Notes: generated by a model not told the origin, from the letters alone. A stretch of DNA of 64,000 nucleotides from Firmicutes bacterium UBA5286 (GCA_002408465.1 DHSM01000006.1:131392-195391); one strand, 5' to 3'. Numbered from the stretch's first letter, positions 4,502 through 43,470 are shown. Numbers and translations: made by a program.

Positions 4502-6736
4502 TTAAGCCTTAATTTTTTTTATTTCCTGAACACTGGCTGCCTGCAGCCATTTAGTAAAAGCCTCCGCTTCCTCCAGGAGCAACTGCAGACGTTGTCGCCT
4601 GGGTCCGGCTTTAAGTTTTGTCCCGGTCCCAATGCCCAGCACCAGTTTGCCTTCAATCAGTTCATAGCCCACAATCCCTGACTCAGAGAGCAGACGCAGA
4701 GCAGCGAGGATAGTCTCCTCGGTCTGGGCCAGGGCGGCAGCCAGGGAAGCCAAGGGCGCTATACCTCCCAGCTGATTGAGGATATACTTTAGGGCGCCCA
4801 GGAATCCCGGAAGAAAATCCTCTCTTTCCCCCGGGGCAAAACCCAACACCACCAGATCCGGCTCCACCATAGCCAGGACTTGGCGCAACACAGCAGGGGA
4901 AGGAGGCGGGGTAAGGAGGACCAACACGCTGGCGGGCTCAAGACCCACCCGGGTAAAACCTGGATGATCCTGCCATTTTATCCCCTCCCGGTATACTGCC
5001 GCCTGGGAAAACTGGCGCAATACTTGGCGCCAGGGGAGCCCCCGCAAATCCTCATACTGATAGCTTCTCTTCAGGAGCAGCGGGCGCTCATGCCCCGGCC
5101 ACCAAGCTTTGAGAGTAGCCATTACCGATTGCTGCCCCCGGTAATAATCCTGGGCTACAGTGAATACAGCGCCAATGCTGCCTCCGGGCTCTGGGGCCGG
5201 GCCCCCGTCCCACAAGCCGGCGGCAAGACTGTGCCTGCGATCGCCAAGTGTGAGGATATAGCCTGTGCCTGCAGGACGAATACTCTTGACAGCCAGGCTC
5301 TGACTATACAAGAGAGGACGGGCATTGCCCTCGCCGCAAGGCGCCATGGCAGCTAGATCTTCCACCAGTTCCAAACTAATATCGCCGGCTTTGACCACCA
5401 AATCCACCGTCAATTCCGACTGGGTCCACCCTTCCATCTTCTGAGCGAGGACCTGCTGAGCAGCTAGAATAAAGCTCTCCAGCTTGTCCAGGGAAAGAGA
5501 AAAGCCGGCGGCGGCAGGGTGCCCGCCAAACTTTAGCAGGTGCTCACTGCAGAGGTCCAGCACCTGGTAGATGTCAATTCCCTCTACCGAACGAGCCGAG
5601 CCCACGATGCTCCCATCCCGGCCGTCAGTCATGAGGATGGCTGGCGCCAGGCTGCCAGAACAAACTTGGCCGGCAGCGATGCCGATTACCCCCTGATGCC
5701 AGCTGGAATTGTGGGCCACAACCGGCCTCCCCGGCTCCAGGTCCAAATCCTCTAGAATCTTCCGGCCCAATTCTTTGCGCAGAAGATTGAGCCGGTTAAG
5801 TTCACGGGCCAGGGGCTCGGCCTCGGCTCTCTCTTTGGCCAGCAGCAGATTTACTCCTAAGCTGCCACTGTCCAGGCGGCCGGCGGCATTGATGCGGGGA
5901 GCAATCTGAAAGCCCAGCTTTTCCTCATCCACCAGTCCCGGCTGTAGATTGGCAGCGGCAAAAAGCGCTGCCAGGCCGGGCCTCTCTGCCTGCTGCAGCA
6001 GGGGCAAGCCCCTGACATACAGCTGCCGGCTGTGGCCCAGCAAGGGCACCACATCGGCAATTATCCCCAGAGCGACCAGGTCCAGCAGGTCATCTGCCCC
6101 CAGATTATGCCGGTTCAGCAACTCCCGAGCGAGGACAAAAGCAGTCCCCACTCCAGGCAGGTCCCGGGACGGGTGGCCCTGGGGAAGGAGCTTAAAATTC
6201 AGCACTGCCGCCGCCTGAGGCAATTCCGGAGGCGGCGTATGGTGATCGGTTACCACTACATCCATCCCCAGCCGGCCTGCCAGCTGGATTTCCCCATGGT
6301 TGCTGATGCCGCAGTCACAGGTGATGATTAAGTTTACGCCTTCGCCGGCCAGGGCTTCTACCCGCCGGGCATCCATGCCGTAGCCTTCGCTGAAGCGGTT
6401 GGGAATATGCCAGACTGCCTGGGCCTGCAGCCTGTTTAGGGTGGTGACCAGCAAGGCGGTGGCGGTGATGCCGTCCACATCATAATCGCCGTAAACAGCA
6501 ATCTTTTCTCCCCGTTCCAGGGCGGTCTCCACCCGGGCGATTGCCTGTATCAGAGGCGGATACTTGCTGAGATCCGGCTCGGGCTGAGCCAGAGGGTTGA
6601 GAATATGCTCAATCTCTTCCTTGCTGTCAATGCCCCGGTTGTGGAAGATGGCTGCCAGGCGGGGGCTGCCGCCAGCCCACAGGACCATTTCCGGAGGCAG
6701 GAGACCTTCTGGCGGCAATTTGATGCGCACGCTCAA
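4502..6736 (-). CDS. recJ: Single-stranded-DNA-specific exonuclease RecJ
   Basis: DHH family motifs (VYGDYDVDGITATALL, CDCG, VVTDHH), DHHA1 region and a long Firmicutes-type C-terminal extension. Its start overlaps the stop of the upstream nuclease gene. Confidence 0.9.
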   Translation of the reverse strand: MSVRIKLPPEGLLPPEMVLWAGGSPRLAAIFHNRGIDSKEEIEHILNPLAQPEPDLSKYPPLIQAIARVETALERGEKIAVYGDYDVDGITATALLVTTLNRLQAQAVWHIPNRFSEGYGMDARRVEALAGEGVNLIITCDCGISNHGEIQLAGRLGMDVVVTDHHTPPPELPQAAAVLNFKLLPQGHPSRDLPGVGTAFVLARELLNRHNLGADDLLDLVALGIIADVVPLLGHSRQLYVRGLPLLQQAERPGLAALFAAANLQPGLVDEEKLGFQIAPRINAAGRLDSGSLGVNLLLAKERAEAEPLARELNRLNLLRKELGRKILEDLDLEPGRPVVAHNSSWHQGVIGIAAGQVCSGSLAPAILMTDGRDGSIVGSARSVEGIDIYQVLDLCSEHLLKFGGHPAAAGFSLSLDKLESFILAAQQVLAQKMEGWTQSELTVDLVVKAGDISLELVEDLAAMAPCGEGNARPLLYSQSLAVKSIRPAGTGYILTLGDRRHSLAAGLWDGGPAPEPGGSIGAVFTVAQDYYRGQQSVMATLKAWWPGHERPLLLKRSYQYEDLRGLPWRQVLRQFSQAAVYREGIKWQDHPGFTRVGLEPASVLVLLTPPPSPAVLRQVLAMVEPDLVVLGFAPGEREDFLPGFLGALKYILNQLGGIAPLASLAAALAQTEETILAALRLLSESGIVGYELIEGKLVLGIGTGTKLKAGPRRQRLQLLLEEAEAFTKWLQAASVQEIKKIKA

Positions 6737-7515
6737 GGCAGGTTCACCCCCTGGAGGACAATTTCCTGTACTTGCTCCCAGTCCACCTCATCAATGTCCA
6801 GCAGATCTTCCTGAACTTCCTCCAGGCCCTGGCCATGGCAGACAGGCCGGTATTCGCAAAACCGGCAATTTTTCTCGTTATTCGTGGCCGGGAAGGCTGC
6901 TGTGCTCATAATCTGATCAATAAGCCGGCGAATCCAGGCTCCGTCCTGTTCCTGCTGCTGGACAGAGTAATTTACAGTCAACGGCTCCCGGGGAAATCTG
7001 GGATTCCAGTAAACCATCTGCACATTTTCCGCTTCTACACCAAAATAGCCGGTAAGGGTCAAGAGATACAGATAAAGCCGGGTCTGAGGAGAAACTGCGA
7101 AAGCTGACCGGGGTGGCCGTTCATCGGTCTTCCAGTCGTAAATGGTAACTTTCCCCTGGCCCGCCGCCAGCAAGTCGTACTTGGCCAACAGGCGCAGATC
7201 ATTCTGAGCTGAGCGCAGCTCATATTCCGGCAAGAACTCTTCCTTAGCTGACAGAGGCAAATACTCTTGCAGCTGGTTCAGCCAAGTTGCCAGCATGGGT
7301 TCTCCCGGAGGCAGCGCCCCCACGCCGCCGCTGAAATAGCGCTGAGCCAAAAGGTGAAATCTCCGCCCCAGCTCAATATGCTCGCTGACTTTTCCGCCAG
7401 CGGCAAAAGGCCAATAGAGGCCGTCGATGTAACGATACTTAAATTTCAGGGGACAGCTCTGCCAGGCGGACAGAGAGGCCTGGCTAAACCAGAGTTTGCT
7501 CAGTTCACTTGGCAC
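6733..7515 (-). CDS. PD-(D/E)XK nuclease with 4-Cys Fe-S cluster motif (Cas4/AddB C-terminal-like)
   Basis: 260 aa. One early Cys (SCPLKFKYRY), RecB-type motif IYDWKTDE and C-terminal C-x2-C-x5-C (CRFCEYRPVCHG). Confidence 0.7.
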   Translation of the reverse strand: MPSELSKLWFSQASLSAWQSCPLKFKYRYIDGLYWPFAAGGKVSEHIELGRRFHLLAQRYFSGGVGALPPGEPMLATWLNQLQEYLPLSAKEEFLPEYELRSAQNDLRLLAKYDLLAAGQGKVTIYDWKTDERPPRSAFAVSPQTRLYLYLLTLTGYFGVEAENVQMVYWNPRFPREPLTVNYSVQQQEQDGAWIRRLIDQIMSTAAFPATNNEKNCRFCEYRPVCHGQGLEEVQEDLLDIDEVDWEQVQEIVLQGVNLP

Positions 7516-9646
7516 CTGCCTTCACCTCCATGGTTTTTTCCAGCTCTTTTATTGCCAATGCAGGCCGCTGCCGTCCGTATTTGCCCTTTTTATGCCAGGT
7601 CAGCAGTAAATTGACTTTTGCGCGGGTGATGGCCACATACAACAGGCGCAGGCGCTCACACAGGAGTTCTTCCCGGGCGGCGGCAATGGCAGCGACAGTG
7701 TCCCGGCCCTGCATTTCCGCCCGGGCCACGGCCACGGGATTGATGATTTCCTCCGGCAGCCAGCCGTACTCCGCCCTGATCTTATCTGTGGGCAGGCCGG
7801 GATAATCATTGCTTGTGACGCTGACCACATATACCGTATCCCATTCCAGGCCCTTGGCCCGATGGGCGGTGACCAGGTTTACTACCCCCGGCTGGGGGCT
7901 ATAGCCCCAGCGGTCAAAGAAAACATTGGCTGCCCCCAGGAAGCTAGTGGTCAGCCGCCGGACTTCTTCCGCTACCTGGGGCAGGCGCCAATTGGGGTAG
8001 ATAGCCAGCCACTGCTTAATGTCTACAGCGATTTTCTGGGCCAGGGCCAATTCCTGTTGCTGCAGGCCCAAGTCATTGGCGATTTCCAGCACCAAAATAT
8101 CCGGGGGCAGGTGCAGGGCCTCCAGCCAGACCTTTAGCTGCTCCAGCTGGGCCTGGACATCCACCCACAATTCAAACTCCCTCAAGCTCTGGGGCCAGCT
8201 GGGCTCAGAAAAGAGCAGCTGTTCTGCCGGCACTGTCTCCAAGTAGCCCCGGACAGGAGCAACATCAACTAGTTGGGGAACAAGCCGTTCCAGGGCGGCC
8301 ACCAGCAAACCGTTATCCCCGGGATTGGCCAGGAAGTTTAGGATTGCCTGGAGGTCATCAATGGTCTTGCGCCGCTCGGCTGGATACTGGCAAATTTCGT
8401 AAAAAGGAGCCTCCATATCCGTCAGCGCCTGTCTGAAATCAGACACCAGTTGGTTAGTAGGGGCGAGAATTGCCACTGTCTTATCAGGATTGCGCTGGAC
8501 GTAGCCGGCGGCATGTTTGCTGACCTCAAGTATTTCTTCCTCAAAGTCTTCATAGCTGCGAACAGCCAGGGTATAGCCCGGAGAGCTGGGATTGGGGAAG
8601 GGATCATCGGCGGCCACCGGCTGAATATAGTTGGGCTCCAGCGCCTGCCGGCAAGCTGGGATGGGATGCTCATTGCAGCACCAGTGGACCAGGCCGTTGG
8701 CCAGGTCGATAATGTCAGTGCTGCTGCGGTTGGACTGGAGCATGGGCAGAGCAACTACATCCGGACGCCGGGCATAATCCCGGAACAGGCCGGGATCGGA
8801 ATCGGTGAAGGTTCCCATTATTGCCTGGTTGGAATCTCCCACCCGCACCAGGTTGCCGCTGCCCTTAGCTAATTTCAGGAGCAAGGCCTGCTGCAGAGGG
8901 TTGGAATCTTGGGCTTCATCTTCAAAAATATAAGGCCAGGCTGCCGACAGCCGCAGGGCCAGTTCCGCATCATCCTCCACCATGCGCCAAGCCCGCAGCA
9001 GGAGGTCGTCAAAGTCCACCATCCCCAGCTGGGCCAGGCGCTCCTGGTATTCACGATAGAACTCCGCCGTCCAGGCATAAAAATTATCGCCGCTGCTCTG
9101 CGCTGCCGCCTCTTGGGGAGACAGACCTAAAGCTTTAAAGCGGCGGATCATCTCTTTACCCATGTCCACGGTGCGGTTCCGCCACCCTTCAAGGGTCTGC
9201 TGAAAGCGCATATGGGATTCGCTGATCTTCAGCACCGCTTGCCAGCGCTGTTGGTTGCGGTCGATCCAGCGGTCGACGATCTCCTCAACCAGCCGCTCCC
9301 GGTAACCACCGTCGAGGATGGAAAAATCATCCCGAAGCAGAGCTGAATCCGGGCGCTGGCGGATAATCTGCAAAGCCAATGAATGCAGGGTCCTGACTTC
9401 AAAGCCAACTCCCCTGGGCAGATCCCGCTTTTCCAGCCAATCGCCAATCTTGCGGGTAAAGTTTGCCACCGCCGAGTTCATGACTGTAACCACCAGGATC
9501 TTGGAACCCCGGGGCAGACCTTCACTGATTAAACGGGCTGCCAGCCAGGAAAGCACAGTGGTCTTGCCGGCGCCGGGGACGGCAGGAACGGCCAGTAGTC
9601 CCCCTTTATACTCTGCTACTTCACTTTGTCCCGGTCGAAAGCGCAT
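7505..9646 (-). CDS. UvrD/PcrA-family SF1 DNA helicase (AddA helicase-core-like, no nuclease domain)
   Basis: Walker A AVPGAGKTT, motif II FEDEAQD, motif III VGDSNQAI, motif V LVTAHRAKGLEWD, motif VI YVAITRAK. The likely start is internal (MRFRPGQ at about 9646) with GGAGAGGAGGGG upstream. The longer track ORF overlaps the upstream gene by 200 nt. Confidence 0.85.
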   Translation of the reverse strand: MRFRPGQSEVAEYKGGLLAVPAVPGAGKTTVLSWLAARLISEGLPRGSKILVVTVMNSAVANFTRKIGDWLEKRDLPRGVGFEVRTLHSLALQIIRQRPDSALLRDDFSILDGGYRERLVEEIVDRWIDRNQQRWQAVLKISESHMRFQQTLEGWRNRTVDMGKEMIRRFKALGLSPQEAAAQSSGDNFYAWTAEFYREYQERLAQLGMVDFDDLLLRAWRMVEDDAELALRLSAAWPYIFEDEAQDSNPLQQALLLKLAKGSGNLVRVGDSNQAIMGTFTDSDPGLFRDYARRPDVVALPMLQSNRSSTDIIDLANGLVHWCCNEHPIPACRQALEPNYIQPVAADDPFPNPSSPGYTLAVRSYEDFEEEILEVSKHAAGYVQRNPDKTVAILAPTNQLVSDFRQALTDMEAPFYEICQYPAERRKTIDDLQAILNFLANPGDNGLLVAALERLVPQLVDVAPVRGYLETVPAEQLLFSEPSWPQSLREFELWVDVQAQLEQLKVWLEALHLPPDILVLEIANDLGLQQQELALAQKIAVDIKQWLAIYPNWRLPQVAEEVRRLTTSFLGAANVFFDRWGYSPQPGVVNLVTAHRAKGLEWDTVYVVSVTSNDYPGLPTDKIRAEYGWLPEEIINPVAVARAEMQGRDTVAAIAAAREELLCERLRLLYVAITRAKVNLLLTWHKKGKYGRQRPALAIKELEKTMEVKAGAK

Positions 9647-11588
9647 TCTCACACCCCTCCTCTCCCGCCAGCGCCCCATACAGCGCTGCCAACAATTCCC
9701 CATCCTGCTCAAACCCCTGACTGTCAATATTGGCGGCGGCCACAAGCAAATGCCCGCCGCAGCGGCGGAGTAGCGCTCTGGCCACCCTAGCCCCATTGTG
9801 GAGGCTGACAGACTGGTTGTATTCATCGGTCCAGATTTCCCCCTGAGGCCAGCGGGCCATAAGCACGTGGGGATTAATCAGCTCTCGCACATCCTGCTGA
9901 AACCAACGCCGGCTGGTGCAATCCATCCATACCTGCACTGTCGAGCGGAGATGTCCGGAGATATAGGCATAGGGCGTAGTCAAGATGACAGCATGCTCCC
10001 GGTTTGCCGGCTCTAGCAGACTCTCGGCCGCCACAGTTCCTGCCGAAAGCATGCGGATAAAGGCGGCGCCGGGGCTTGTACCCAGGTTAATGCGCCCTGT
10101 AGTCTTAATAAATTTATGGGCAGATACCAGCAGCTGCCTGCAGACCACCAAGTCATCGCGAGCGGGAGGCAGCCGGGAAAGCAGTTCACCAAAGACCCGT
10201 TGAAAGAAGAGGTCAATTGGCTGTTCGGGCCCCTGGCGGTAACTGTCCAGCCATTGTCGCAAGAGATCATAGCCCTGGGCGGCCCGAAAGCCCACCCGCT
10301 CCCGCTGCCACAGCTCCAGGGCCGGTAAATTGCAGTCCAAGACCTGCCGGCTCAGCAACCAGGCGCGCACGGGGTCCAGCTTGAGCAGCAGCTGCAAGGA
10401 CTGGGCCAGGTCAGGCACCCCCCAATCCAGTTGCCACTGGGGATGAGCCAACAGGGCCAAGGTCATCATCGCCCGCACATAAGGCTCGTCAATAAGGCGC
10501 CGATTCTTGGTGAGCACATTGAGAGACACTCCAGCTTCCTTGAGATGAAAGGCGAGAGTATGCTCCAGGACCTTATCTGCCAGGGGAGCAATGACTGCAA
10601 TTTCAGAAGCAGGCACCCCCTGGGCAAGCAGGCGCACAACCCTTTCCCCCACCCGGTCCAGGAGCTCGCTGCGCAGATCTTCATGAATCAGCTCGATTTG
10701 CGGCCGCCGTCTGGGCAAGACGGGGACGTTGCCAGAAAGGATACTTGAATACACTGCCCTTCCCGCCCCCAGCTGCTGCTGAGAGCGCACCGGCACAATT
10801 TTGCCAATGGCGCCGAAGCGCTGCCAGGCCCCTTGGGCATCGGCCCCGAAAAAACCGGCGTGGCCGCCGTCGGTGCTGAAAGTGAGCACAGCGCTCTCCA
10901 CATGTTCCAGCAACGCTGCAATTAAATCTTGGGCGGCAGGAGACTGTTCATCCACATCGTCTGCCAGCAGATGCTTAAATTGCCGCAATTCCTGGCGGTA
11001 CCAGGGCTCAGCCAGCAGCTGGCGGTAAAGGGCCACCGCCAAACCATAATCCAGGGTTCCGGACTTTTCCGCCCCCGCAATATAACTGTCCAGCACCTGC
11101 TGGGCAGATTTATACACATTCGGGTCTTTATCGGGCATTGCCGCTGCCAGACGGCTGCCAATTTCAGAAAAAGCTATTCCGTTCAGGCTAGCCAAAACTA
11201 GACAGCTACCCAGCTGAATGGCCAGGCGTTCGGGACTGGTAACCAAGCCGGCAAAATCTGCCTGCCTGGTCTGGATATGCCGAAGCATGGCAAACTGACC
11301 GGTCTCAACGGTGAGGAATTCCGGCTCCAGCCACATCTCTCCCCAAGGATCCAGGCGCGGCCAACAGCGCCGGATTTCCCGCTGCACCCAGCCAAAATAT
11401 GTATACACATGCAAGGGACCGGCCCAGGGAAAATCCACCCGCTCACGCCAGTCCCGGACATCCCGGGCGTTCCACAGCAGCACCAGGATTGAATCAGTTC
11501 TTCCTTTTCGGGCCAAAGAACTGTAGCGCTGCCACAGCTTTTCAGTTTTCCCCGCCCCACCTGGGCCCACCAAGAGCATCCTCTCCAT
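9621..11588 (-). CDS. P-loop SF1-helicase-like protein (AddB/RexB N-terminal-like, possibly degenerate helicase)
   Basis: N-terminal Walker A LLVGPGGAGKTEK, DExx-like LLADDVDEQ and a degenerate motif V/VI region near the C-terminus. No nuclease motif. Confidence 0.55.
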   Translation of the reverse strand: MERMLLVGPGGAGKTEKLWQRYSSLARKGRTDSILVLLWNARDVRDWRERVDFPWAGPLHVYTYFGWVQREIRRCWPRLDPWGEMWLEPEFLTVETGQFAMLRHIQTRQADFAGLVTSPERLAIQLGSCLVLASLNGIAFSEIGSRLAAAMPDKDPNVYKSAQQVLDSYIAGAEKSGTLDYGLAVALYRQLLAEPWYRQELRQFKHLLADDVDEQSPAAQDLIAALLEHVESAVLTFSTDGGHAGFFGADAQGAWQRFGAIGKIVPVRSQQQLGAGRAVYSSILSGNVPVLPRRRPQIELIHEDLRSELLDRVGERVVRLLAQGVPASEIAVIAPLADKVLEHTLAFHLKEAGVSLNVLTKNRRLIDEPYVRAMMTLALLAHPQWQLDWGVPDLAQSLQLLLKLDPVRAWLLSRQVLDCNLPALELWQRERVGFRAAQGYDLLRQWLDSYRQGPEQPIDLFFQRVFGELLSRLPPARDDLVVCRQLLVSAHKFIKTTGRINLGTSPGAAFIRMLSAGTVAAESLLEPANREHAVILTTPYAYISGHLRSTVQVWMDCTSRRWFQQDVRELINPHVLMARWPQGEIWTDEYNQSVSLHNGARVARALLRRCGGHLLVAAANIDSQGFEQDGELLAALYGALAGEEGCENALSTGTK

Positions 11589-11627: not shown

Positions 11628-11690
11628 AACAAGGGACGGTCAATTGCTTCCTGGATTGTGTAATCCCAGGTGCGGAAGCAATTAAACCGT
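11628..11690. repeat. Long imperfect palindrome (about 18-bp arms) at the GC-content break
   Basis: gggacggtcaattgcttcc ... ggaagcaattaaaccgtcccc, with a nested cctggatt/atcccagg pair in the loop. Confidence 0.6.
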
Positions 11691-11774
11691 CCCCATCCTA
11701 ACAATCATGTCGCTCTAGTTGAGCACAAACTCAATGGCCCGGAACAGCTGGGTAATATTCCCTATGAAAATGGT

Positions 11775-12446
11775 CTACGCAATCATCCCGTCCACAATGT
11801 TCAAGGTTCTATTGCAGTATTGGCTGATATTCGGATTATGAGTAACAATTATCACTGTCTTGCCTTCCCTGTTCAGTTTTTGAAGCAAGCTTAGAATTTC
11901 ATCTGAAAGCCTTGTATCCAAAGCTCCTGTTGGTTCATCCGCCAAGATAATCTCTGGCTCATTTACCATTGCCCTAGCAATAGCGACCCGCTGTTTTTCA
12001 CCACCAGAGAGATTACGGGTAAGCCGTTTGGCCAATTTACTAATCTCAAGTTTTTCCATTATTTTATAAGCACGCCTTTCCATATCGCTCCATTTAACCG
12101 ACTTATTAAATAGCAAGGGGGTGATGACATTCTCTATGGCCGTGCGATCATTTAAGATGCCGAAATCCTGAAGAACAAACCCAACCTGTTTGTTTCGAAT
12201 TTTGGCAAGCATGTTCTGTTTTAATGTGCTGACCAATTGTCCGTTAAGGAAGTACTTACCATCCGTGGGATAATCAAGACAGCCAATAATGTTCAATAAG
12301 GTTGACTTTCCAGAACCAGATGGGCCCATTATGGCTAACATTTCACCTTTATCAACAGTCAAACTGATCCCCTTTAGGGCATGTATTTGTTCTGGAGTAT
12401 TCTGATTATAGATTTTATGTAAGCCGTGAACCTGAATATAAGTCAT
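11775..12446 (-). CDS. ABC transporter ATP-binding protein (MacB/LolD/FtsE-like)
   Basis: Walker [10 protein letters not shown], signature [14 protein letters not shown], Walker [12 protein letters not shown]. Confidence 0.9.
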
Positions 12447-12452
12447 TATTTT

Positions 12453-13724
12453 TCATCCCTTTCTCATTAAGCTGGAAAGACTTCTGTCTCTGTATAAAAA
12501 TAAAACTGTAACCATTGAAACTAACATATATGCAGCACATATTCCTAAAGTGACTATTATACTCAGAGGACTATATAGCATCGTGTCAGTATTCTCTGCT
12601 GCAGATATTCCCACTTTCACAGCGCCAAGAGCAACTACTGCAGGCAGGAAGACAATTATTGCGTTACATGCCATTTCCACAAAAAACAGATGGGGCCAGT
12701 CCATTCCATGCATAAGATAAATCACGACTTCCTGCCTGTTTTTTAACATCTGCAATATATTGTAGCCACTGATTCCAATTAAGGATATTAGGGCAACTAC
12801 CAAACCAAGACTGATAAAGCTCCTATTCCCTATAATAATCTGCTTTCTTTCCCTGCTATCTATATCTTCAAAAGAAATAAATTTTCCTAACCCTTCCGCC
12901 TCAGCTTGATTGTTCCACTGGTCTACTAATAAATCTATAGGTCCATTACCTTCAAAAAAACAGATAAAACTCGGATCTTCGGCGGTAAATTGTTTAATAT
13001 TGTCATCGCCCAACCCAAAGGGCGGCAAAATACAAAAGAAATCTCTGCTATGGGAGATTCTTTTTCCCACAAGATCTGAGAGCAAAATGCTATCTATATT
13101 TCCACCGGGAAAGGTGTAATAGCAATATTTATTTTGCAAAACTCCTATTACCGTAGTTTTTACCTTATACAATTCCTCATTATGTCCGATGGTCAAATCC
13201 ATTTGAGACCCCAACCCGTACATTTTGCTTAATGGACCGCTAACTATTATAGGTACAGTCCCGTTGGTAGTTAACAAGTCTCTTAACTTACCCTCCCTTA
13301 AAGGAAGAAACAGACTTTCCAGCAACACAGTGTCATAAACCTGGAAACCAGCCAGGGCATATTCCTGTTGTTCTGTGTCCCAAACCAATCCCATTCCAGC
13401 GTGGACGGTTCCAACAGCAATTATATCCTGATACCTGGTGATACTAGTTTTCATTTCATAGTAGCTGTTGAAAATATCCTCAGAGCCATCATATATGTTG
13501 CCTGTTTTTCCCCCGATTAAATTGCAGAAGCGTTCAGCCGGCAAAAATAGCACAGCATTATCTAGCTTGGAAGTCTTTATCAGATTTCGGGACTGATTAA
13601 CATAAGCGAACTTTGCAGAAAGTATGTTAAATATCAAACACATAAGCATAATCTGAGTCATTAACACAATAATACTACCTTTGTTTTTCCACATTCCCTT
13701 GCAGATAATGTACAGATTTTTCAC
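12453..13724 (-). CDS. FtsX-family ABC permease (MacB-type, large extracytoplasmic domain)
   Basis: N-terminal TM, about 250-aa periplasmic-type domain, three C-terminal TM helices. Stop overlaps the ATPase start region. Confidence 0.7.
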   Translation of the reverse strand: MKNLYIICKGMWKNKGSIIVLMTQIMLMCLIFNILSAKFAYVNQSRNLIKTSKLDNAVLFLPAERFCNLIGGKTGNIYDGSEDIFNSYYEMKTSITRYQDIIAVGTVHAGMGLVWDTEQQEYALAGFQVYDTVLLESLFLPLREGKLRDLLTTNGTVPIIVSGPLSKMYGLGSQMDLTIGHNEELYKVKTTVIGVLQNKYCYYTFPGGNIDSILLSDLVGKRISHSRDFFCILPPFGLGDDNIKQFTAEDPSFICFFEGNGPIDLLVDQWNNQAEAEGLGKFISFEDIDSRERKQIIIGNRSFISLGLVVALISLIGISGYNILQMLKNRQEVVIYLMHGMDWPHLFFVEMACNAIIVFLPAVVALGAVKVGISAAENTDTMLYSPLSIIVTLGICAAYMLVSMVTVLFLYRDRSLSSLMRKG

Positions 13725-14863
13725 TGCCAGTTTCCCCCAATATGCCGTGCAATTTGGCGCCTCAGCGCCTGGGGCATCAGCCTAGATACCGTCCATGCTA
13801 TTGCATGGGAAAATAATAGGGTCAAGAATAGACAGCAAATATATAGAATCCAGATATTGGTTATATCTATCCTGTAGTAAAGGTACCCTAATGGTATAAG
13901 AAGCGGTGATACAGTGTGGTAAACCAACAAACCCAGTCCGAAAGATACTGATGTAATGATAATAGCTTCAAATACTATATGGGAATACAACCAGAATCTT
14001 GTGCATCCACAAATAATATAGGTGTAGTATTTTTTGGTATTATAACTAATCCAATATCTATAAAAAGAAAAGACGTTAACCAAACTAAGTCCTACTGCTA
14101 ATACGATTAATAATAACAGGAGATAGATTTCATATAAATACTTCTGATCGCTGGGAACCGGAAGTGAAAGTGACTCATGAGGAAACAGGGAATAAAATTT
14201 GTCATTAAACCGCTCTATTTGACTTTCCGTAAGTGCGGTTTCAAAATAGAAATCTACTGTTGCACAAGATCCTGCAACTTTTTTATATTCTTTGAAGGGT
14301 ATGATCGCATTTCTTTCATTAACTAATTCCGGAGACCCTTTTACAGGCGATATTACCGGAAAAACCCCTACGCCAATTACATTATACTTGTTACCCTGAA
14401 TGGCAAATTGGGCCCCGCTGATATTCATGAGTTTATCAAAGTCGAGAAGGCAACTTGAAAGCAAAACCGGCCTCTCTGTATTGATGGCTGAATTAAAGTC
14501 TCGTCCTGTTTCCAGCACATAGCCTATGGAATTGCCATAATAGCCTGTTAGAATATAGTCGCCATCCTCAATATAGGTATGGGCATAAAGTCTGCTGATT
14601 TCTGGGAGATAGTTACTGGTATAAATTTCCTGCTCAATAAATTGGAGAACGTTTTTTAGATTTGAGTTGTCAAAGTACATGGTAAAGTGGCGCAAGCTCA
14701 TATGAATACTATCCAGTTCCTTATAGCGTGCTATATTATCGGCATAGAAGTATATAAATGCTGAGAAACATGTTGTTAAGCCAAGCAACATCACAAAAAA
14801 AATCAAAGTCTTTTTTTTGATAAAATCAATGACATCATAAATGACATGAAAAATAAACTTCAT
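13721..14863 (-). CDS. FtsX-family-like ABC permease (second permease)
   Basis: Same topology (N-terminal TM, large loop, C-terminal TM bundle). Start at MKFIF preceded by AAAGGAGA. ATGA overlap with the downstream gene. Confidence 0.6.
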   Translation of the reverse strand: MKFIFHVIYDVIDFIKKKTLIFFVMLLGLTTCFSAFIYFYADNIARYKELDSIHMSLRHFTMYFDNSNLKNVLQFIEQEIYTSNYLPEISRLYAHTYIEDGDYILTGYYGNSIGYVLETGRDFNSAINTERPVLLSSCLLDFDKLMNISGAQFAIQGNKYNVIGVGVFPVISPVKGSPELVNERNAIIPFKEYKKVAGSCATVDFYFETALTESQIERFNDKFYSLFPHESLSLPVPSDQKYLYEIYLLLLLIVLAVGLSLVNVFSFYRYWISYNTKKYYTYIICGCTRFWLYSHIVFEAIIITSVSFGLGLLVYHTVSPLLIPLGYLYYRIDITNIWILYICCLFLTLLFSHAIAWTVSRLMPQALRRQIARHIGGNWQ

Positions 14864-15091
14864 AAGGGTCTCCTTTCGTAAAAGGACTGTATTTCTTGTA
14901 TACATTTCTCCTAGTTTTTTGTTATTCCATCATCTTTCCCTGTGAGGAATATACCAAATATAATATATTGAGTCAATGTTTTAGATATACCCCCTGACTG
15001 AACCGAGTAAATAGTGGATATTAATGCATGGGAGAATCATCCTCTTACTGGATACATTATAAAGACTTCTTCTGCTTCAAAAGTAAAAACG

Positions 15092-15122
15092 GCTCCCAGA
15101 GGAAGCCGTCCTATCTGCACCA
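15092..15122 (-). terminator. Terminator downstream of the ABC exporter remnant
   Basis: acggctcc-caga-ggaagccgt hairpin with a preceding A-run on plus, giving a T-run on minus. Confidence 0.45.
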
Positions 15123-15142
15123 CATAGACATTGTTTTTGTCC

Positions 15143-16124
15143 TCACGCGCTCCGGGCCGTGAGGATACCATCGGTCATCCTGTAGACCTGGTCGGCGGCG
15201 TCGGCGATGGCCAAGTCATGGGTGACCACCACGACGCAGTAGTTTTCAGCGTGGGCCAGGTGCCGGAGTATGTCCATGACCCTGTTGCCGTTGGCGGTAT
15301 CCAGATTGCCAGTGGGCTCGTCGGCCAGCAGCAATCGTGCCCCGGTGGAAAGCGCCCGGGCAATGGCCACCCGCTGCTGCTCCCCGCCCGAGAGGTTGGA
15401 CAGAAAGCGCCGCCGCTTTTCCTCGGCAATGTCGTGCCCCTGGCCCTGGCCCAGGAGCGGGCCAGGGAAATGCTGGCCGCCGAAAGTACACACTGAAATT
15501 GGCGCAACTCAAATAGTCGATACTCTCTTATATCGGCGCCGTTAATCCTGATTACACCTTTATCCGGGTCATATAGCCGCAGTAGCAGCTTTATAAGCGT
15601 TGACTTGCCCGAGCCATTCAGCCCTACCAGGGCTACCTTTTCTTGACGGTGGAGGAGAAAACTCACATCTTCCAGGGCAGGTACTTGGCCCCTGGATAAG
15701 TAAAGGAAACATGCTCAAATTCTATAGATTCGACCCTGTCAAGACGCTTAGTACCCTTATCCGCAATGCGGTTATGGAAGCTCTCCAGGGTTTTAATATT
15801 TGCGATCTTTAACTGATTGTCATAAATCTGCATGGCTGAGTGGGTAAGCAGGGAAATGGCCGCCCAAAGCTGGCTTAAGAGGCCGGTATACAGGGAATAA
15901 TCCCCCACTGTCGCCATACCGTCCAGCACCCGAAACGCAATATTGACGCCGATGAGCACAACGACGACCTCCGGCAGACAATCCAGCAGGCAGGTCAGGA
16001 TTGTACGTTTCCGGGTCATGTCCCTCCGCTTGCCAAAAAGCTCCTTCCACAGCCGGGCATAACGATCTTTTAAGCGTTCTCCCGCATTGAACACCCGAAC
16101 ATCCTGGGCATAGCCCTTGTCCAC
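15143..16124 (-). pseudogene. Frameshifted, N-terminally truncated ABC exporter (permease-ATPase fusion) remnant
   Basis: Three overlapping minus-strand ORFs in different frames. 15663-16124 holds the end of the TM domain and the start of the NBD (IEFEHVSFTYP). 15175-15666 has Walker A GLNGSGKSTLIKLL then goes out of frame. 15143-15493 has [15 protein letters not shown], Walker B LLLADEPTGNLD and the H-loop VVVVTHD. Upstream is too short for a full TMD. Confidence 0.75.
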
Positions 16125-16262
16125 AGCAATGCTCTGATAATAGCTCTTATGCGTTCCCCGTTTATCTGGGCAATGCTCAGATGGTACAGGGACTTTGTGT
16201 ATTTTGCAGCCGCAATTGAGCTAATTTATAGTCACTTTCTTCATCTAGTGGAACTCCTTTCG

Positions 16263-17594
16263 CTAGTTGCAGGCTATATCCTGTTTCTTAAAGATAACGG
16301 CGCCCACTATAAAAAGCAAGATTGTTGCTATGGACAGGGTGAGCAGGCTGCTGAGGTAGGTAGAAGCCAGGCTCCCTTCCAGTAAGGGAACGACATCGGC
16401 CTTGGAGAAGAGATCCCAGGCAGTTGTGCTTAAGTTAGGTATTATGTTGCCAAAGGCGCTACCCAATACAAAGATTCCGGCGGCGACTAGGTGGGCAATG
16501 ACCTCATTCTTAACCAGGATTGAAATCAATAATCCCAGAGCGGTGCAGAAGAGGATAAAGAGCAGTATTTGCACAGCAGCCAGGCCGAAGAACTGCCAGA
16601 GGGGAATAAAGTCATATAATTCCAGTCTGGATACATCCGCCAGAACGGGAATCTTGCTGAGTCCGGTGTCGTAAAACCCTATATTTATTCCCATATCTTT
16701 AAATACTGTAAAGCTTGACAGGACATTCTTATCAAGAAGTACGGGGTAGTTTAATCCTCGGAAGCCGTGCCTGATACCCAGAATTAGAATGGACAAGATC
16801 TGGGGAAGAACTATTACGCTGCTGCTGGCGAAAAAACTCAGGGAGAGCTTGCGCAACAAATAACGAGTCCTGCTCAAGGGAGCAGATAAACTCACCTTTA
16901 TTACGCCAGAGCTCTTATCTCTGTGCAACATATTGACAGACATTAAGAGGACGACGATTCCCAAAATGTTGGGTAAACCACGACGCAGAAAATTAAACGT
17001 GAAAGCCCAGGGGGAAGTATCGTGGGCCCCGGTTGGGGGGAGGCCGGTCTTTACCATCTCCAAGTAATAACATGCATTTATCATGATAGCTAAAACTTCA
17101 TCTGGTGCAAATGTTGCCGCTGCGGCAGGGTGTACCATAAAACTTGGGTAGTCCAACTCCTCAGTAATATTCTCCCAGTCGCCGCCAAAAAACTGTTGGG
17201 GACATGGTGAAACGTTTTTTAAAAGGTGGTCCCAAGATAGCAACCGGTCTTCTGCCCGGGACCTATGGTATTCCACCCAGTCTCGCGACATATATGATTC
17301 ATAAATTCTCCTCGCCAATAAAACACGATAGTGGTAATACTCCTGGGATTTCTCATACTCCTCGGGGGATGCACTAATTGCCCCTCCCCGCCACCAGCTC
17401 TCAACTATATCCACAACGCCCTCATTTCCACCAATACTAGCTTTTAGAGCTGCTATCTTTTGACTCTCTGCACCCTTACTTTCATGCAAGGCTTGCTGAA
17501 TAAAGACCAATTGAAACAAGAAGAGAATCAGGATGAGGATTAAAAACTTATAGCTTTTACATATGCTTTTCAGTTCAAGGAAGAAGGATTCCAT
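16263..17594 (-). CDS. ABC-2 family transporter permease
   Basis: Multi-TM membrane protein at the end of the ATPase + 2 permease operon. Large extracytoplasmic loop then a TM bundle. Confidence 0.65.
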   Translation of the reverse strand: MESFFLELKSICKSYKFLILILILFLFQLVFIQQALHESKGAESQKIAALKASIGGNEGVVDIVESWWRGGAISASPEEYEKSQEYYHYRVLLARRIYESYMSRDWVEYHRSRAEDRLLSWDHLLKNVSPCPQQFFGGDWENITEELDYPSFMVHPAAAATFAPDEVLAIMINACYYLEMVKTGLPPTGAHDTSPWAFTFNFLRRGLPNILGIVVLLMSVNMLHRDKSSGVIKVSLSAPLSRTRYLLRKLSLSFFASSSVIVLPQILSILILGIRHGFRGLNYPVLLDKNVLSSFTVFKDMGINIGFYDTGLSKIPVLADVSRLELYDFIPLWQFFGLAAVQILLFILFCTALGLLISILVKNEVIAHLVAAGIFVLGSAFGNIIPNLSTTAWDLFSKADVVPLLEGSLASTYLSSLLTLSIATILLFIVGAVIFKKQDIACN

Positions 17595-18838
17595 TATGCC
17601 GGGCCTCCCTTCAGGTCTTGTTTATTCAGGACAACCAAGCTTAGAGCCAGGAGCAGGAATGTACATCCCCCCAGCAGGGTCAGGTAGGCCAGAGCGGAAC
17701 CAATATAAAAGCCCTGAAAAACATCCTTAAAGCCCAGGGCTGCAAAGGGCCAGGCCAGGTAGAAGCTGCTGCCGGTGGGGAAGAGAATCCGGAAGCTGTA
17801 ATCCAGGAAAAGCAAGCAAATAACAGCGCTCAGGGCATTGGCCGTGCTGCCAAGCAGTAATGAAGCTGTTCCGGTAAGGGCGAGAGTAAAACAGGACATC
17901 AACAGGTAGATTGGAATCACTCCCGCAATGTATGCAGACCAGGGCACCAGGGGTAGCACAGTGTCGGCAGCGGAGGGATCCGTGACCAAACTGGTATAGG
18001 AGCCCTCCATGTAAAAGACTGGGTAGTTTATGTCTCCCAATCCACGAACCAAGGACAGAACACCAAAGGTCAGGGCGATGAGCCCTGTGACCAAAACGAT
18101 ACTGGCAGTTATGTTGAGACCAAACTTCACTACATGAATAATGCTGCGTTTATGGGGCTGGGAGTACAGGACCTTGTATGCTCCGCCTTCAATGTCTTCA
18201 GCAAATAAGTCCATGCTCAGCATCAATAGGGTAATTACTACAATTAGTATCCAGGGGAAGCTGGTGAGATGGTAGAGGAAGTTGGCTGCAGTCATTTCAT
18301 AGGGACTGTTTAGGGGGTCAATATTATCCCTGAGCAGGGCCTGATTCACTACCAGGCGCTCTTCTATTTCTAAGGGATTAGCGCTTTGGGCAAGAATACT
18401 TGTCGACTCAACAAGACCTTCTTCAAAACCGTTGAGCAAATGTTGGTCCCGGGCTATCCAGAGCTCCAGCTTTTCCTGGGCTTTGTCTTTACTGTATTCA
18501 CCGGCTAAGATTGACTGCTGGCAGCAATACACGCGCTGCCACTGTAGGAAGTTTGCCTTCTTCTCCAGTTCAGCAATCACTACTTCGGCGTTGGGTGTGG
18601 TGCCAGCTTTGGCCGCTTCCCGGGCCATCTCCAATTCTTTGTGGACATTCGTCCCCTCAATCTGAATTAAGGCCAGTTCCTGATTAAGTTCAACTTCGAG
18701 GGCAGCCCAGTAATTATTGTCTTGGATAATGTTGTAGGTAATCATGGCCAGGAGGGAAGCTAGAAACACCAGGAGAACAACTAGGTTCTTCTTAGCATAC
18801 CAGAACTTAAGACACTCAAATTGCAGTATCGCCTTCAT
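17594..18838 (-). CDS. ABC-2 family transporter permease
   Basis: N-terminal TM, large soluble loop, C-terminal 5-6 TM. Start overlaps the stop of the ATPase gene. Confidence 0.65.
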   Translation of the reverse strand: MKAILQFECLKFWYAKKNLVVLLVFLASLLAMITYNIIQDNNYWAALEVELNQELALIQIEGTNVHKELEMAREAAKAGTTPNAEVVIAELEKKANFLQWQRVYCCQQSILAGEYSKDKAQEKLELWIARDQHLLNGFEEGLVESTSILAQSANPLEIEERLVVNQALLRDNIDPLNSPYEMTAANFLYHLTSFPWILIVVITLLMLSMDLFAEDIEGGAYKVLYSQPHKRSIIHVVKFGLNITASIVLVTGLIALTFGVLSLVRGLGDINYPVFYMEGSYTSLVTDPSAADTVLPLVPWSAYIAGVIPIYLLMSCFTLALTGTASLLLGSTANALSAVICLLFLDYSFRILFPTGSSFYLAWPFAALGFKDVFQGFYIGSALAYLTLLGGCTFLLLALSLVVLNKQDLKGGPA

Positions 18839-19779
18839 CAGAGGACTTCCTTCTCATAGATGTGGCTGTATAGGTTTTCAATATTCGCGGTCTGGGGCAC
18901 AATTCCCCTGAGCTCCCGGCCATCGGCCAGGATGGTGGTTATGACTCGGGTGCAATGCGTAATATCTGATAAAGATATCAGAAGCTCGCTTTCCCCGGCC
19001 AGGAAGTCCTGGAGCAGGCCCTCAGTCTTCAGCTTGCTCAGCATGGCCAGGTCCTGCTCCTGACGATCGACATAAAGCTTGTAACTGAGGACTGCCACGT
19101 CAGCCTGGGCCTTTTCCTGGGAGACAATCTCCCCGTCCTTAATAAAGATGTTGCGGGAGGATATCTTCTCCATCTCTATGAGTTGGTGGGAGGAGAACAG
19201 GATTCCGCAGCCCTCCCGGGCAAGCCCCTTTATCATACTCCGCAACTCAAAAACGCCCTGGGGATCCAAACCGTTAAAGGGCTCGTCCAGAATTAAGAAA
19301 GTAGGCTTGGGCAGGATGGCCACCGCCAGTGCCAGGCGCTGTTTCATCCCCATGGAGTAGGCTCCAGCCTTTTTCTTCAGGGCATGGCCCAGCCCGGTAA
19401 ACTCAATGACCTCTTCTAAGCGCTTCCGGGGGATTTGCCTGAGGCTGGCGAAGACCTTCAGGTTTTCTATCCCCGTCAAGTTGAAATACAGCCCCGGAGC
19501 CTCAATTAGGGCGGAAAGGTGACTGAGAGCCTGGCTGCGCTCCTTATACAGATCGTGCCCGGCAATCTCGACCTTGCCGCTTTCTGGGAAAACCAAGTTG
19601 GCGATGCACTTCATGGTAGTGCTCTTGCCTGAGCCGTTTGGGCCGATAAAGCCCAGAATCTCGCCGGTTTCCAGTGTAAAGGAAACGTTTTTTAAAACAT
19701 GCAGCTTGCCGAAAGACTTATTAAGGTTTTCAACAGACAAAATTCCCACTGCGTTACCTCCCATTGTCATTAGTAGCAT
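18838..19779 (-). CDS. ABC transporter ATP-binding protein (ABC-2 type)
   Basis: Walker A GPNGSGKST, signature SMGMKQRLALA, Walker B LILDEPFNGLD. Confidence 0.9.
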   Translation of the reverse strand: MLLMTMGGNAVGILSVENLNKSFGKLHVLKNVSFTLETGEILGFIGPNGSGKSTTMKCIANLVFPESGKVEIAGHDLYKERSQALSHLSALIEAPGLYFNLTGIENLKVFASLRQIPRKRLEEVIEFTGLGHALKKKAGAYSMGMKQRLALAVAILPKPTFLILDEPFNGLDPQGVFELRSMIKGLAREGCGILFSSHQLIEMEKISSRNIFIKDGEIVSQEKAQADVAVLSYKLYVDRQEQDLAMLSKLKTEGLLQDFLAGESELLISLSDITHCTRVITTILADGRELRGIVPQTANIENLYSHIYEKEVL

Positions 19780-19871
19780 GTAGTAAAAGATCTATATAGT
19801 GTAATGCGGCTAAATTGAATGAAGAAAACAATGCACCTTCACGGTATCATCCGGGCTGTTGCAAGCTAAAA

Positions 19872-20237
19872 TCAAGATTGGCTAAATAATGCTAGTAGGG
19901 CTGATGCTGACCTACGCCGGTCATCGAAGGCCACGTACTGACTTTGGGAAACCAACTCAGCCCCTTCTTCCATTTTGTTTTCCCCTGATTTTTCCTGTAG
20001 CTCAATAAGAGCTTCCCACGTGAAAGAAGATATATATGTCGGATTTTTCTTGTCCATGATGCCGATGCTACGGTAATAGCCAGCCAGCCTGTCCGTCTCC
20101 CGCTCCACCACCAGGTATTCCACCGCTCGGGAGATAAAGGCAAAGGAGATAAGTCCCTCCAGAAGGAGCAAAAACAGTGTGCGCACCCGCTGGCGCAGGG
20201 TGGACTGCAGGCAGATATTCCTAATGTTTCTTTTCAC
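19872..20237 (-). CDS. Small hypothetical protein with one hydrophobic segment
   Basis: The track ORF begins with a TTG only about 25 nt from the predicted -10. A GTG at about 20237 preceded by AGGTGAG is a more plausible start. Confidence 0.3.
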   Translation of the reverse strand: MKRNIRNICLQSTLRQRVRTLFLLLLEGLISFAFISRAVEYLVVERETDRLAGYYRSIGIMDKKNPTYISSFTWEALIELQEKSGENKMEEGAELVSQSQYVAFDDRRRSASALLALFSQS

Positions 20238-20292
20238 TTGCTCACCTGCTTTTCTGAGCAATTTTCAGAATCCGCTTTTTTAATTATAAATG

Positions 20293-20320
20293 ATTAAAAA
20301 AAAACGTCAATTGAACTGGG
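20293..20320 (-). promoter_or_regulatory. Sigma-A-type promoter (TTGACG, 16-nt spacer, TATAAT) reading into the small gene and ABC-2 operon
   Basis: Plus-strand cgtcaa at 20315-20320 and attata at 20293-20298 are a near-consensus -35/-10 on the minus strand. Confidence 0.5.
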
Positions 20321-20374
20321 TTTATAACTCAAATGTTAATCTTTACCCAAATTAGCCCTAGATAAAATATAAAT

Positions 20375-20422
20375 ACCCCAAAAACCCAGGATGTCTATCT
20401 GGATTCTTGGGGTTTACATATG
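20375..20422 (-). terminator. Terminator after the pepF/hyp/Mrr-like operon
   Basis: ccccaa...ccagg/ctgg...ttgggg hairpin. On minus it is followed by tatttatatttt. Confidence 0.4.
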
Positions 20423-20539
20423 TGCCTAACTTTTTTCTCATTCACTTAGTTTTGCAATCTAAACTAGCTCCAACAATCGTAAGGACCGGCAGCAAAGGGT
20501 GACTGGCGATCCTTAGATTGTAGAGAATCTAGAGGCACA

Positions 20540-21064
20540 TTAACTGCGGGTTTTGGCAGCGGCGGCGGTTTTCATTCCCTCGGGTATTCCGTCGGCCAAG
20601 CGCTCCAGCTCAGCTTCCAAGCGATTGAATTGCCACAGCCAGACACCAGTTTCCAGGGCCAGGCGGCGGGCTTTTCTGGTAAAGCCCTCTTGGCTGACGA
20701 GAATGGCAAACTCGCAGTTCAGCCTGCTCCGGGCTTCGCTTACAGCAATGACGGGTCTCTCATTGATGGGCTTGCGCCACCATTTGATGTGGACATAGGT
20801 TCTTGCTCCCAGCCTGGACAGTATATACTCCGCCCCCATGCGCCCCTGGTAGAGGACGTCTTCCACCTCATAACCATGGCAAAAAAAGTAGTCCAAAGCG
20901 GCGGCATTGCTGCCGGGAACGATTGAAACCTTCCGCCGGTGAAGCAACATGGCGGCCAGGTACACCAGGACAAGGCCGGCCAGCACCGGCCAGTAAGGTG
21001 AGGCAAAGCGGACAAATTCTTTAAGGGTGTGCCAGGCCAGCTTCAGCGCCTTTTCCATCAACAT
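20540..21064 (-). CDS. Membrane-anchored restriction-endonuclease-like (Mrr_cat/NERD-like PD-(D/E)XK fold) protein
   Basis: N-terminal TM (YWPVLAGLVLVYLAAMLL), then HGYEVEDVLYQGRMGAEYIL...YVHIKWWRKP...VIAVSEARS...ILVSQEGFTRKARRLALETGVWLW, which resembles the Mrr catalytic-core layout. Divergent, so family assignment is tentative. Confidence 0.4.
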   Translation of the reverse strand: MLMEKALKLAWHTLKEFVRFASPYWPVLAGLVLVYLAAMLLHRRKVSIVPGSNAAALDYFFCHGYEVEDVLYQGRMGAEYILSRLGARTYVHIKWWRKPINERPVIAVSEARSRLNCEFAILVSQEGFTRKARRLALETGVWLWQFNRLEAELERLADGIPEGMKTAAAAKTRS

Positions 21065-21085
21065 CCCCCTCGTTTCCGATGAATA

Positions 21086-43458: not shown

Positions 43459-43470
43459 TAGATTTCCCCC

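Follow-up and report, generated by a model that had tools for sequence, protein, structure and literature searches.

A 64,000-nucleotide stretch of Firmicutes bacterium UBA5286 (GCA_002408465.1, DHSM01000006.1:131392-195391), here called the window, carries at 11698-15087 a low-GC island that encodes an ABC transporter composed of one ATPase and two permeases. We found that this island is a horizontally acquired cassette, lodged in a hypervariable spot between an Mrr-like gene and a conserved 655-amino-acid (655-aa) gene, p655, of an uncultured anaerobic-digester Bacillota lineage. Alignment with relatives shows that the island descends from a four-gene locus whose first gene was lost, and the orphan transporter left behind is under purifying selection. 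We give even chances to this transporter being an orphan pump for immunity or resistance, left over from a bacteriocin-like system. For all relatives, referred to below by L numbers, the comparison material consisted of metagenome contigs or metagenome-assembled genomes (MAGs).

A horizontally acquired cassette between Mrr and p655

The island contains three minus-strand genes only, overlapping or nearly abutting, and is flanked on one side by p655:

11698-15087, minus strand: low-GC island proper, comprising promoter region, small-gene relic, permease 1, permease 2, ATPase and a 78-nt 3' untranslated region
14948-14976, minus strand: sigma-70-type promoter of the island operon (TTGACT and TATATT separated by 17 nt, with an upstream TG; best scanned site, 10/12 matches)
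14880-14905, minus strand: 5' relic of the small gene (ATGTAT...), placed by a three-way alignment in which L034 retains the gene and L012 shares the deletion
13721-14863, minus strand: permease 1, 380 aa, a divergent FtsX/MacB-type half-transporter (Pfam FtsX 23.2 bits, under the 25.5 cutoff)
12453-13724, minus strand: permease 2, 423 aa, a second, even more divergent FtsX/MacB-type half-transporter
11775-12446, minus strand: ABC ATPase, 223 aa (Pfam ABC_tran 6e-35), of the LolD/MacB/FtsE/Lcn972-ABC group
9621-11588, minus strand: p655, the conserved 655-aa gene of a p655-UvrD-PDDEXK-RecJ cluster, a fixed right-hand neighbour that stands beside Mrr in every relative

Composition sets the island apart from its surroundings. 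In 300-bp sliding windows, GC was 0.56-0.62 up to ~11.6 kb, 0.30-0.43 at ~11.75-15.1 kb and 0.52-0.66 thereafter. With its borders set from relatives, the island (3390 bp) has a GC of 0.381, and amongst all 3390-bp windows across the 64 kb (mean 0.495, sd 0.040) the minimum begins at 11699. The original prediction, made from the sequence alone, had described a GC drop from a background of 55-58%; the drop is real at ~11.75-15.1 kb, but the background is ~50% (49.5% for the whole window), with values of 58-60% only in the left flank (5-11.5 kb) and ~48% in the right flank (15.5-20.5 kb). GC at third codon positions (GC3) was 0.38-0.43 in the three island genes compared to 0.561 +/- 0.076 in the 42 other window genes (z -1.7 to -2.3). 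The proposed check of GC and codon usage thus returned a profile that is not uniform, with the island as the lowest-GC window of its length and an outlier in GC3, and the sharp borders and atypical composition expected of a horizontally transferred island are both present. The prediction that the island holds only an ABC ATPase and two FtsX-family permeases was likewise borne out, the FtsX label being reached through remote homology only.

To compare arrangements of the site, species-representative genomes were searched with p655, which gave the following:

L019, p655 identity 86%: Mrr-like gene directly beside p655, an empty site
L020, p655 identity 73%: empty site
L017, p655 identity 67%: empty site
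L018, p655 identity 87%: toxin-antitoxin-like genes at the spot
L016 (UBA5496), p655 identity 93%: Mrr, a 1060-aa double-FtsX/MacB_PCD permease, an intact 222-aa high-GC ATPase and p655, without the island
L012-L015 (~85% nucleotide identity to the window), p655 identity 90%: island directly between Mrr and p655
L036: flank 98% identical to that of L016, the intact 222-aa ATPase included, followed by the island

The island occupies the site in L012-L015, L034, L036 and L037 and is missing from it in other relatives, which supports acquisition. Had every relative shown these genes at this locus, the prediction of a foreign cassette would have been contradicted, but the comparison returned a different picture: L017, L019 and L020 have nothing at the site and L016 has another cassette. 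The borders drawn from GC and GC3 match the comparative ones. Homology to L016, which has no island, picks up at 11697 and ends at 15152, so that relative to L016 the inserted DNA extends to 15151 and takes in a 60-bp stop/terminator segment, while L012 is colinear with the window from 15087 leftwards. Divergence within the island also differs from that around it: synonymous divergence (dS) between the window and L012 reached 0.45-0.81 in eight genes of the flanks against 0.22-0.33 within the island, and nucleotide identity was 0.87-0.95 from the island to ~700 bp into p655 (to ~10.9 kb), then 0.78-0.90. This lower dS, together with the high-identity tract entering p655, suggests that the island spread by homologous recombination through p655 after the lineages split.

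The island might instead consist of native genes, never acquired, whose low GC reflects the AT-rich codons of hydrophobic membrane proteins. Residues such as I, F, L, Y, N and K do reduce GC at first and second codon positions (GC1 and GC2) in membrane proteins, and the cytoplasmic ATPase, with a GC3 of 0.43, is slightly less extreme than the permeases. However, the soluble ATPase is GC-shifted too, so the island is not a mere membrane-protein codon effect; GC3 is shifted as strongly as GC1 and GC2, and the ABC-2 permeases elsewhere in the window have GC3 values of 0.53-0.58. Four relatives lack the genes at the site, L016 and L036 differ in the absence and presence of the island within a nearly identical background, and the operon is also found in unrelated contexts in L011 and L021. 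We regard a native origin as hardly credible.

Neither mobility genes nor att-type repeats were found. As had been predicted, there is no integrase or tRNA: the whole window contains no tRNA, and the flanking genes carry no integrase or transposase domain (Pfam). A search for flanking direct or inverted repeats yielded one long pair (11971-12014 and 15354-15397), which is the homologous Walker-B/signature region of two ATPase genes and was set aside.

Loss of the first gene of a four-gene operon

Complete loci related to the island share a fixed order: a small secreted Cys-rich protein (133-141 aa precursor), permease 1, permease 2 and the ATPase. A homologous small protein is encoded directly 5' of permease 1 in L024, L025/26, L027-29/L033, L030 and L035, and in L011 an upstream frame homologous to it was uncalled and is cut by the contig end. 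Overall, the small gene was linked to the transporter in 6/6 independent distant loci with enough upstream sequence, always as the first gene of the operon. Its product at the distant loci (133-136 aa) has a signal peptide ending in [SA]FA followed by C, at least 5 Cys and the conserved motifs SAERYSYP, DGDDAYA and YHTNYC. In each of the five full-length small proteins inspected, [SA]FA is followed directly by Cys, and an odd number of Cys remains beyond the predicted cleavage site. The regulators LytTR, AgrC-like (HATPase_c_5) kinases and AgrB lie beside the loci among L024, L027, L030 and L031, with AgrB in L031. Complete operons that pair a secreted Cys-rich protein with LytTR/Agr regulators lend real support to the predicted link of the island to peptide or bacteriocin export or immunity, though not specifically to the lipid-II-targeting antimicrobials that the prediction also named.

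A locus that retains the gene at the same chromosomal site, L034, was found by scanning metagenome contigs with the small-protein alignment. It carries an ATPase relic 93% identical to that beside the island, the same terminator, a promoter and the small gene, here encoding 141 aa. Its permease 1 matches that of the window at 1143/1143 nt, and its permease 2 is 97.6% identical. Compared to L034, the window has undergone a ~445-bp deletion that begins ~26 nt inside the small gene and stops just short of the ribosome-binding site (RBS) of permease 1, with the junction between 14880 and 14879; L034 498-960 is missing from the window. The deletion is common to the window, L012, L036 and L037. The relic ATG at 14905 reads in frame into permease 1, which explains why the mechanical open reading frame (ORF) of this permease starts at 14905 and comprises 394 aa.

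Identity to the relatives is uneven along the island. The promoter region (window 14900-15085, L034 321-497) is 79% identical to L034 and ~86% identical to L012, and permease 1, 100% identical to L034, is ~90% identical to L012. This mosaic pattern implies that a breakpoint of recombination lies at the small-gene deletion or close to it.

The small protein, LytTR, AgrC-like kinases and AgrB had no match at E < 0.01 in a tblastn search over the whole 64-kb window, in agreement with the prediction that no cognate peptide, sensor kinase or regulator lies inside the island. A 21-aa ORF at 14911-14976 was considered as a peptide gene and rejected: it overlaps the promoter and matches the final part of a 53-aa ORF called in L013 that lacks a conserved start.

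Despite the loss of the small gene, the transporter genes have been retained. Between the window and L012, both of which lack the small gene, the ratio of nonsynonymous to synonymous divergence (dN/dS) was 0.13-0.29 at a dS of 0.22-0.33 (permease 1, 0.29; permease 2, 0.21; ATPase, 0.13), and in each of the 10 places inspected within the same species the three ORFs were intact. An identical ATPase is indexed in 43 of the collection's blocks; it lies on many fermentation and anaerobic-digester contigs and MAGs, all with the synteny of the window. The promoter hexamers recur, by eye, in L012, L036 and L037, and L034 has TTGACT/TATAAT.

Amongst the wider set of relatives, ATPases form a graded series of identity to that of the island, from 81% (L011) and 79% (L021) to 62-67% (L024, L025/26, L027-29, L030 and L031, all with intact operons). 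The nearest relatives lie on metagenome contigs of 40-44% GC, which speaks neither for nor against the low-GC Firmicutes origin suggested in the original prediction. Loci with the small gene (L025 and L034) come from fermentation or digester metagenomes, L025 belonging to the ERZ7240xx series, as do window-type contigs. Individual loci have features of their own. In L025, an extracytoplasmic-function sigma factor and a DUF4367 anti-sigma factor stand upstream of the operon in place of LytTR/Agr regulators, and a second, unrelated secreted protein of 144 aa is encoded at 4074-4508. L021 7332-8678 (ENA ERZ724039 NODE_194) is a decayed copy of the operon, consisting of the C-terminal 147 aa of permease 2 and the 79%-identical ATPase, and sits among the defence-type genes GmrSD_N, HEPN_AbiV and NERD.

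The transporter and its possible task

The catalytic motifs of the ATPase, read from the sequence, are all intact (Walker A, Q-loop, signature, Walker B and H-loop, THN). Its top NCBIfam matches are LolD (221.4 bits), L_ocin_972_ABC (215.6 bits), the MacB nucleotide-binding domain (NBD), FtsE and DarD, none of which reaches its equivalog cutoff; by motifs and by closest NBD subgroup, the protein belongs with MacB/LolD/FtsE-type NBDs.

The permeases are far more divergent. At default thresholds permease 2 had no match in Pfam or NCBIfam and permease 1 none in NCBIfam, while a relaxed search placed an FtsX match of 17.2 bits (E 0.005; cutoff 25.5) at residues 305-411 of permease 2. The orthologues of permease 1 in L024 and L025 clear the FtsX cutoff, with 26.6 and 33.2 bits. 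A word-indexed search of 5.8e9 proteins returned four close relatives per permease, all in the same three-gene operon, and an exhaustive HMMER search of 1.84e9 representatives with a permease-2 profile gave 112 matches; amongst 35 sampled remote homologues, 20 contained FtsX and 18 contained MacB_PCD, a domain that had no match in the window permeases themselves. Against the PDB, the permease-2 family profile matched the YknZ extracytoplasmic domain (8e-5), with non-significant matches (E 0.017-0.24) to LolF (0.017), 5xu1 (0.064) and MacB; the permease-1 family profile matched no PDB sequence. Similarity between permease 1 and permease 2 was not significant by BLASTP or hhalign.

Topology is shared nonetheless. 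By Kyte-Doolittle hydropathy, permease 1 has transmembrane segments (TM) at 11-29, 246-264, 296-314 and 337-355, a layout of TM1, a ~215-aa extracytoplasmic domain and TM2-4, and permease 2 has them at 17-35, 296-314, 355-373 and 389-407. Both thus show the MacB/FtsX arrangement of TM1, a large outside domain and TM2-TM4, with which the secondary structure of AlphaFold2 (AF2) models agrees. It is through transitive homology and topology, not through their own scores, that both permeases are placed in the FtsX/MacB type VII superfamily. Both of them, like the small protein, fall outside current Pfam and NCBIfam models and are annotated as hypothetical by pipelines.

The immunity reading can be put as a sequence of steps. 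The deletion left the promoter, RBS and start codon of the small gene driving the transporter genes. Permease 1, permease 2 and two ATPase copies probably assemble into a heterodimeric type VII (MacB-fold) machine resembling LolCDE, in which the energy of ATP hydrolysis would drive mechanical work on the outside of the membrane, the mechanotransmission known as the mechanism of the MacB-type family (PMC5985334). Its original task would concern the co-encoded secreted protein: the pump may remove or repel this protein, or an associated toxic product, from the cell envelope and so confer self-immunity. The copy in the window would then be an orphan "immune non-producer" version, protecting against producers in the same reactors. 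We favour immunity over export because the secreted-protein gene was lost while the pump was conserved.

Several observations weigh against this reading. The small protein matches no family in Pfam, NCBIfam or the PDB, so that "bacteriocin-like" describes its gene context. The AF2 models of the permeases, built with 4-5 homologues supplied, are of low confidence (predicted local distance difference test scores of 48.5 and 36.7); the MacB fold is consequently drawn from weak homology and topology, and the presumed heterodimer of permease 1 and permease 2 from the pairing of their genes. No regulator is present in the window, and purifying selection would also fit general detoxification unrelated to the small protein.

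Known systems resemble the locus in part. Like LolCDE, it encodes two different ~400-aa FtsX/MacB-type permeases, each with 4 TM, the first two separated by a large extracytoplasmic domain, and a separate ~225-aa ATPase whose best family match is LolD, and mechanotransmission is expected of it (PMC5985334). Unlike LolCDE, however, it is accessory, mobile and low in GC rather than part of an essential core, and its Bacillota host is presumably a monoderm lacking a Lol pathway; at 221.4 bits the ATPase stays below the LolD cutoff of 307.75 (TIGR02211), and the permeases match no LolC or LolE model, so the system falls outside that family. The Lcn972 cluster differs from the island locus in having a single large integral membrane protein in place of two 4-TM permeases. 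The island ATPase, for which the Lcn972-type TIGR03608 is the second-best NCBIfam match, remains below the cutoff of that model (215.6 against 254.85 bits) and so outside the family, the small proteins of related loci match no Lactococcin_972 model, and the window has no small-protein gene. The resemblance lies in gene order and in logic: in the Lcn972 cluster, the gene of a secreted, unmodified bacteriocin is followed by permease and ATPase genes thought to form an ABC immunity transporter (PMC4055356). Orphan ABC immunity transporters are also carried by non-producers, where they are kept without the toxin gene and spread among related populations (PMC10598978). The deletion derivative in the window, L012, L036 and L037, alongside L034 with its gene, follows the same pattern, although the island transporter is of type VII rather than of the AS-48/MR10 type and its toxin is putative.

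A rather unlikely alternative holds that the pump is a general envelope-stress or antimicrobial-peptide detoxification system of the YknYZ, BceAB, VraFG or HrtAB kind, with the small protein as a dispensable accessory or sensor. The top PDB match of the permease-2 family is indeed the YknZ domain, the transporter is kept without the small gene, and the same spot gathers other ABC efflux cassettes (the UBA5496-type FtsX permease and ATPase, and an ABC-2 operon). Gram-positive MacB-type pumps, moreover, act against antimicrobial peptides, bacitracin and haem (PMC5985334). YknXYZ, Spr0693-0695 and MacB pumps share with the island an FtsX-type permease with a MacB-like extracytoplasmic core, and a role in antimicrobial-peptide resistance has been proposed for them (PMC5985334); YknXYZ and Spr0693-0695, however, are homodimeric and work with a membrane-fusion adaptor (YknX, Spr0693), whereas the island has two unrelated-looking permeases and neither an adaptor nor a two-component system accompanies it in the window. 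BceAB likewise joins an FtsX-domain permease to a MacB-family ATPase in Firmicutes and is accessory, often mobile and active against envelope-active peptides (PMC5985334), but BceB is a single 10-TM protein that co-evolved with BceRS, a design closer to the neighbouring UBA5496-type 1060-aa permease than to the two 4-TM proteins found here. The regulators adjoining the complete loci are of the LytTR/Agr quorum-sensing type rather than the BceRS type, and the linkage of the small gene in all six informative distant loci also speaks against a dispensable accessory.

It is also improbable, in our judgment, that the pump is an export or release machine for the small protein, one that in the manner of LolCDE extracts an N-terminal-Cys protein from the membrane or aids its release after Sec export; in that case the copy in the window would have outlived its cargo and be either decaying or re-employed for a different substrate. 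A separate ATPase with two distinct FtsX-type permeases of 4 TM each reproduces the LolC, LolE and LolD architecture, LolD is the best NCBIfam match of the ATPase, and LolF appears amongst the PDB profile matches, if at the non-significant E of 0.017. The invariable first position of the small gene would suit a cargo, and a Cys directly after the signal end combined with an odd Cys count would fit one lipidated or otherwise special N-terminal Cys. Judged by the standard lipobox consensus, however, the sequence is non-canonical, with Phe at -2. A cargo-less exporter should also decay, yet two lineages without the small gene keep three intact ORFs at a dN/dS of 0.13-0.29, and loss of the cargo with retention of the pump is the pattern expected of immunity.

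Taken beyond the window, the complete loci look like an undescribed family of secreted proteins and pumps, as judged by gene content, and a literature search combining FtsX, LytTR, bacteriocin and immunity found no paper. A bolder reading, which we advance only tentatively and think somewhat more apt to be wrong than right, is that the loci of L034, L011, L024, L025, L027 and L030 encode undescribed, quorum-sensing-controlled, Sec-secreted Cys-rich toxins (~110-116 aa without the predicted signal peptide) with a heterodimeric pump of LolCDE architecture as immunity in monoderms, and that the window records a transition from producer to immune cheater by a clean 445-bp deletion, circulating by recombination among digester Bacillota. 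If true, this would constitute a new toxin/immunity family whose immunity part is a heterodimeric MacB-fold pump, an architecture so far known mainly from Gram-negative lipoprotein release, and would supply a defined protein substrate for studying mechanotransmission on an extracellular protein. It would also provide a nucleotide-resolution record of a producer locus becoming an immunity-only locus, and of that locus moving between populations at a hotspot that gathers other ABC cassettes. Should the pump prove to be a general detoxifier, the finding reduces to an ordinary accessory efflux cassette.

Borders of the island and neighbouring DNA

Both borders adjoin conspicuous features, listed here with the cassettes beyond them:

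11632-11697, minus strand: long imperfect hairpin ("palindrome") outside the island, which folds strongly, with helices of 8, 11 and 4 bp in the centroid fold
15086-15112, minus strand: intrinsic-terminator hairpin (12-bp stem and T run) behind the relic ATPase gene, at the outer edge of the DNA inserted relative to L016
15143-15493, minus strand: relic (116-aa ORF, GC 0.658), the 3' third of a high-GC LolD/MacB-type ATPase gene of the resident UBA5496-type cassette
15175-16124, minus strand: MsbA-type exporter fragments (Pfam, NCBIfam)
15481-20042, minus strand: separate replacement segment outside the island, comprising the MsbA-type fragments, the ABC-2 operon and most of the 129-aa ORF, and replacing L016 6228-9528
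16263-17594, 17594-18838 and 18838-19779, minus strand: ABC-2 operon (Pfam, NCBIfam)
19872-20261, minus strand: 129-aa ORF, N-terminal relic of the 1060-aa FtsX permease of L016 and 61% identical to its start

The original prediction had taken the palindrome as the left boundary of the island. The hairpin and the TGnTATAAT promoter of p655 are, however, conserved in the island-free L016, and in L018 (~480-660, upstream of p655) the hairpin and -10 box are tandemly duplicated as two ~84-bp copies behind unrelated genes. Because it is kept in genomes without the island, we consider the hairpin a resident p655 element rather than a scar: it is native to the p655 upstream region, with the island inserted just outside it, and probably terminates or insulates whatever lies upstream. 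Its candidacy as a repeat or att-like element was dismissed, as it is single-copy in the window and inspection revealed no core sites like those of attC. GGGACGG, just 5' of the p655 RBS in the window, is complementary to the hairpin's right arm (ACCGTCCC), and this alternative pairing could mask the RBS in read-through transcripts.

At the right edge, the terminator (15112-15086) and the ABC fragments (15143-16124) named in the prediction do exist, but they belong to an older, UBA5496-type cassette; the decayed ABC gene is the 3' relic of its resident ATPase rather than an edge of the island. The terminator is also present in L034, L036 and L037, with the Mrr terminator in its place in L012. 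An Rfam scan of 11.0-16.5 kb found no riboswitch or leader RNA, its sole match being a sub-threshold ctRNA on the terminator hairpin (24 against 50 bits). The relic shares 95% amino acid identity with the C-terminus of the intact 222-aa ATPase of L016. By blastn against L016, identity is 93.6% over 15152-15433, and the 47 bp at the break (15434-15480) match in the opposite orientation, forming an inverted duplication. At the other end, homology of the 129-aa ORF to the start of the L016 1060-aa gene is carried by its upstream part (20043-20261), which lies outside the replacement segment. The UBA5496-type cassette was thus gutted by the ABC-2 operon and MsbA-type fragments. The whole 15088-20539 block is absent from L012, which has 81 bp there instead.

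The spot as a whole collects ABC efflux cassettes, as seen by comparing window 15088-20539 with L016 5720-9870 and L012 9716-9796. Its fixed left-hand neighbour in all relatives, at window 20540-21496, consists of an Mrr_cat restriction-endonuclease-like gene and a 136-aa ORF, the latter with a non-significant likeness (E 0.13) to a type I restriction-modification specificity domain. On the opposite side, the cluster at 4502-11588 (p655, a UvrD-type helicase, a PDDEXK/Cas4-like nuclease and RecJ) has a GC of 58-60% against the ~50% mean. The p655 protein has a P-loop-like motif at its start and no Pfam or NCBIfam match, and the cluster may be an AddAB-like or novel repair or defence module. 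Farther away, a second low-GC stretch at 41044-44442 (GC 0.39-0.44, GC3 0.42-0.44) encodes an Asp/Glu racemase, two ABC ATPases and a CbiQ/EcfT-type protein, an energy-coupling-factor transporter module that may be another acquired cassette.

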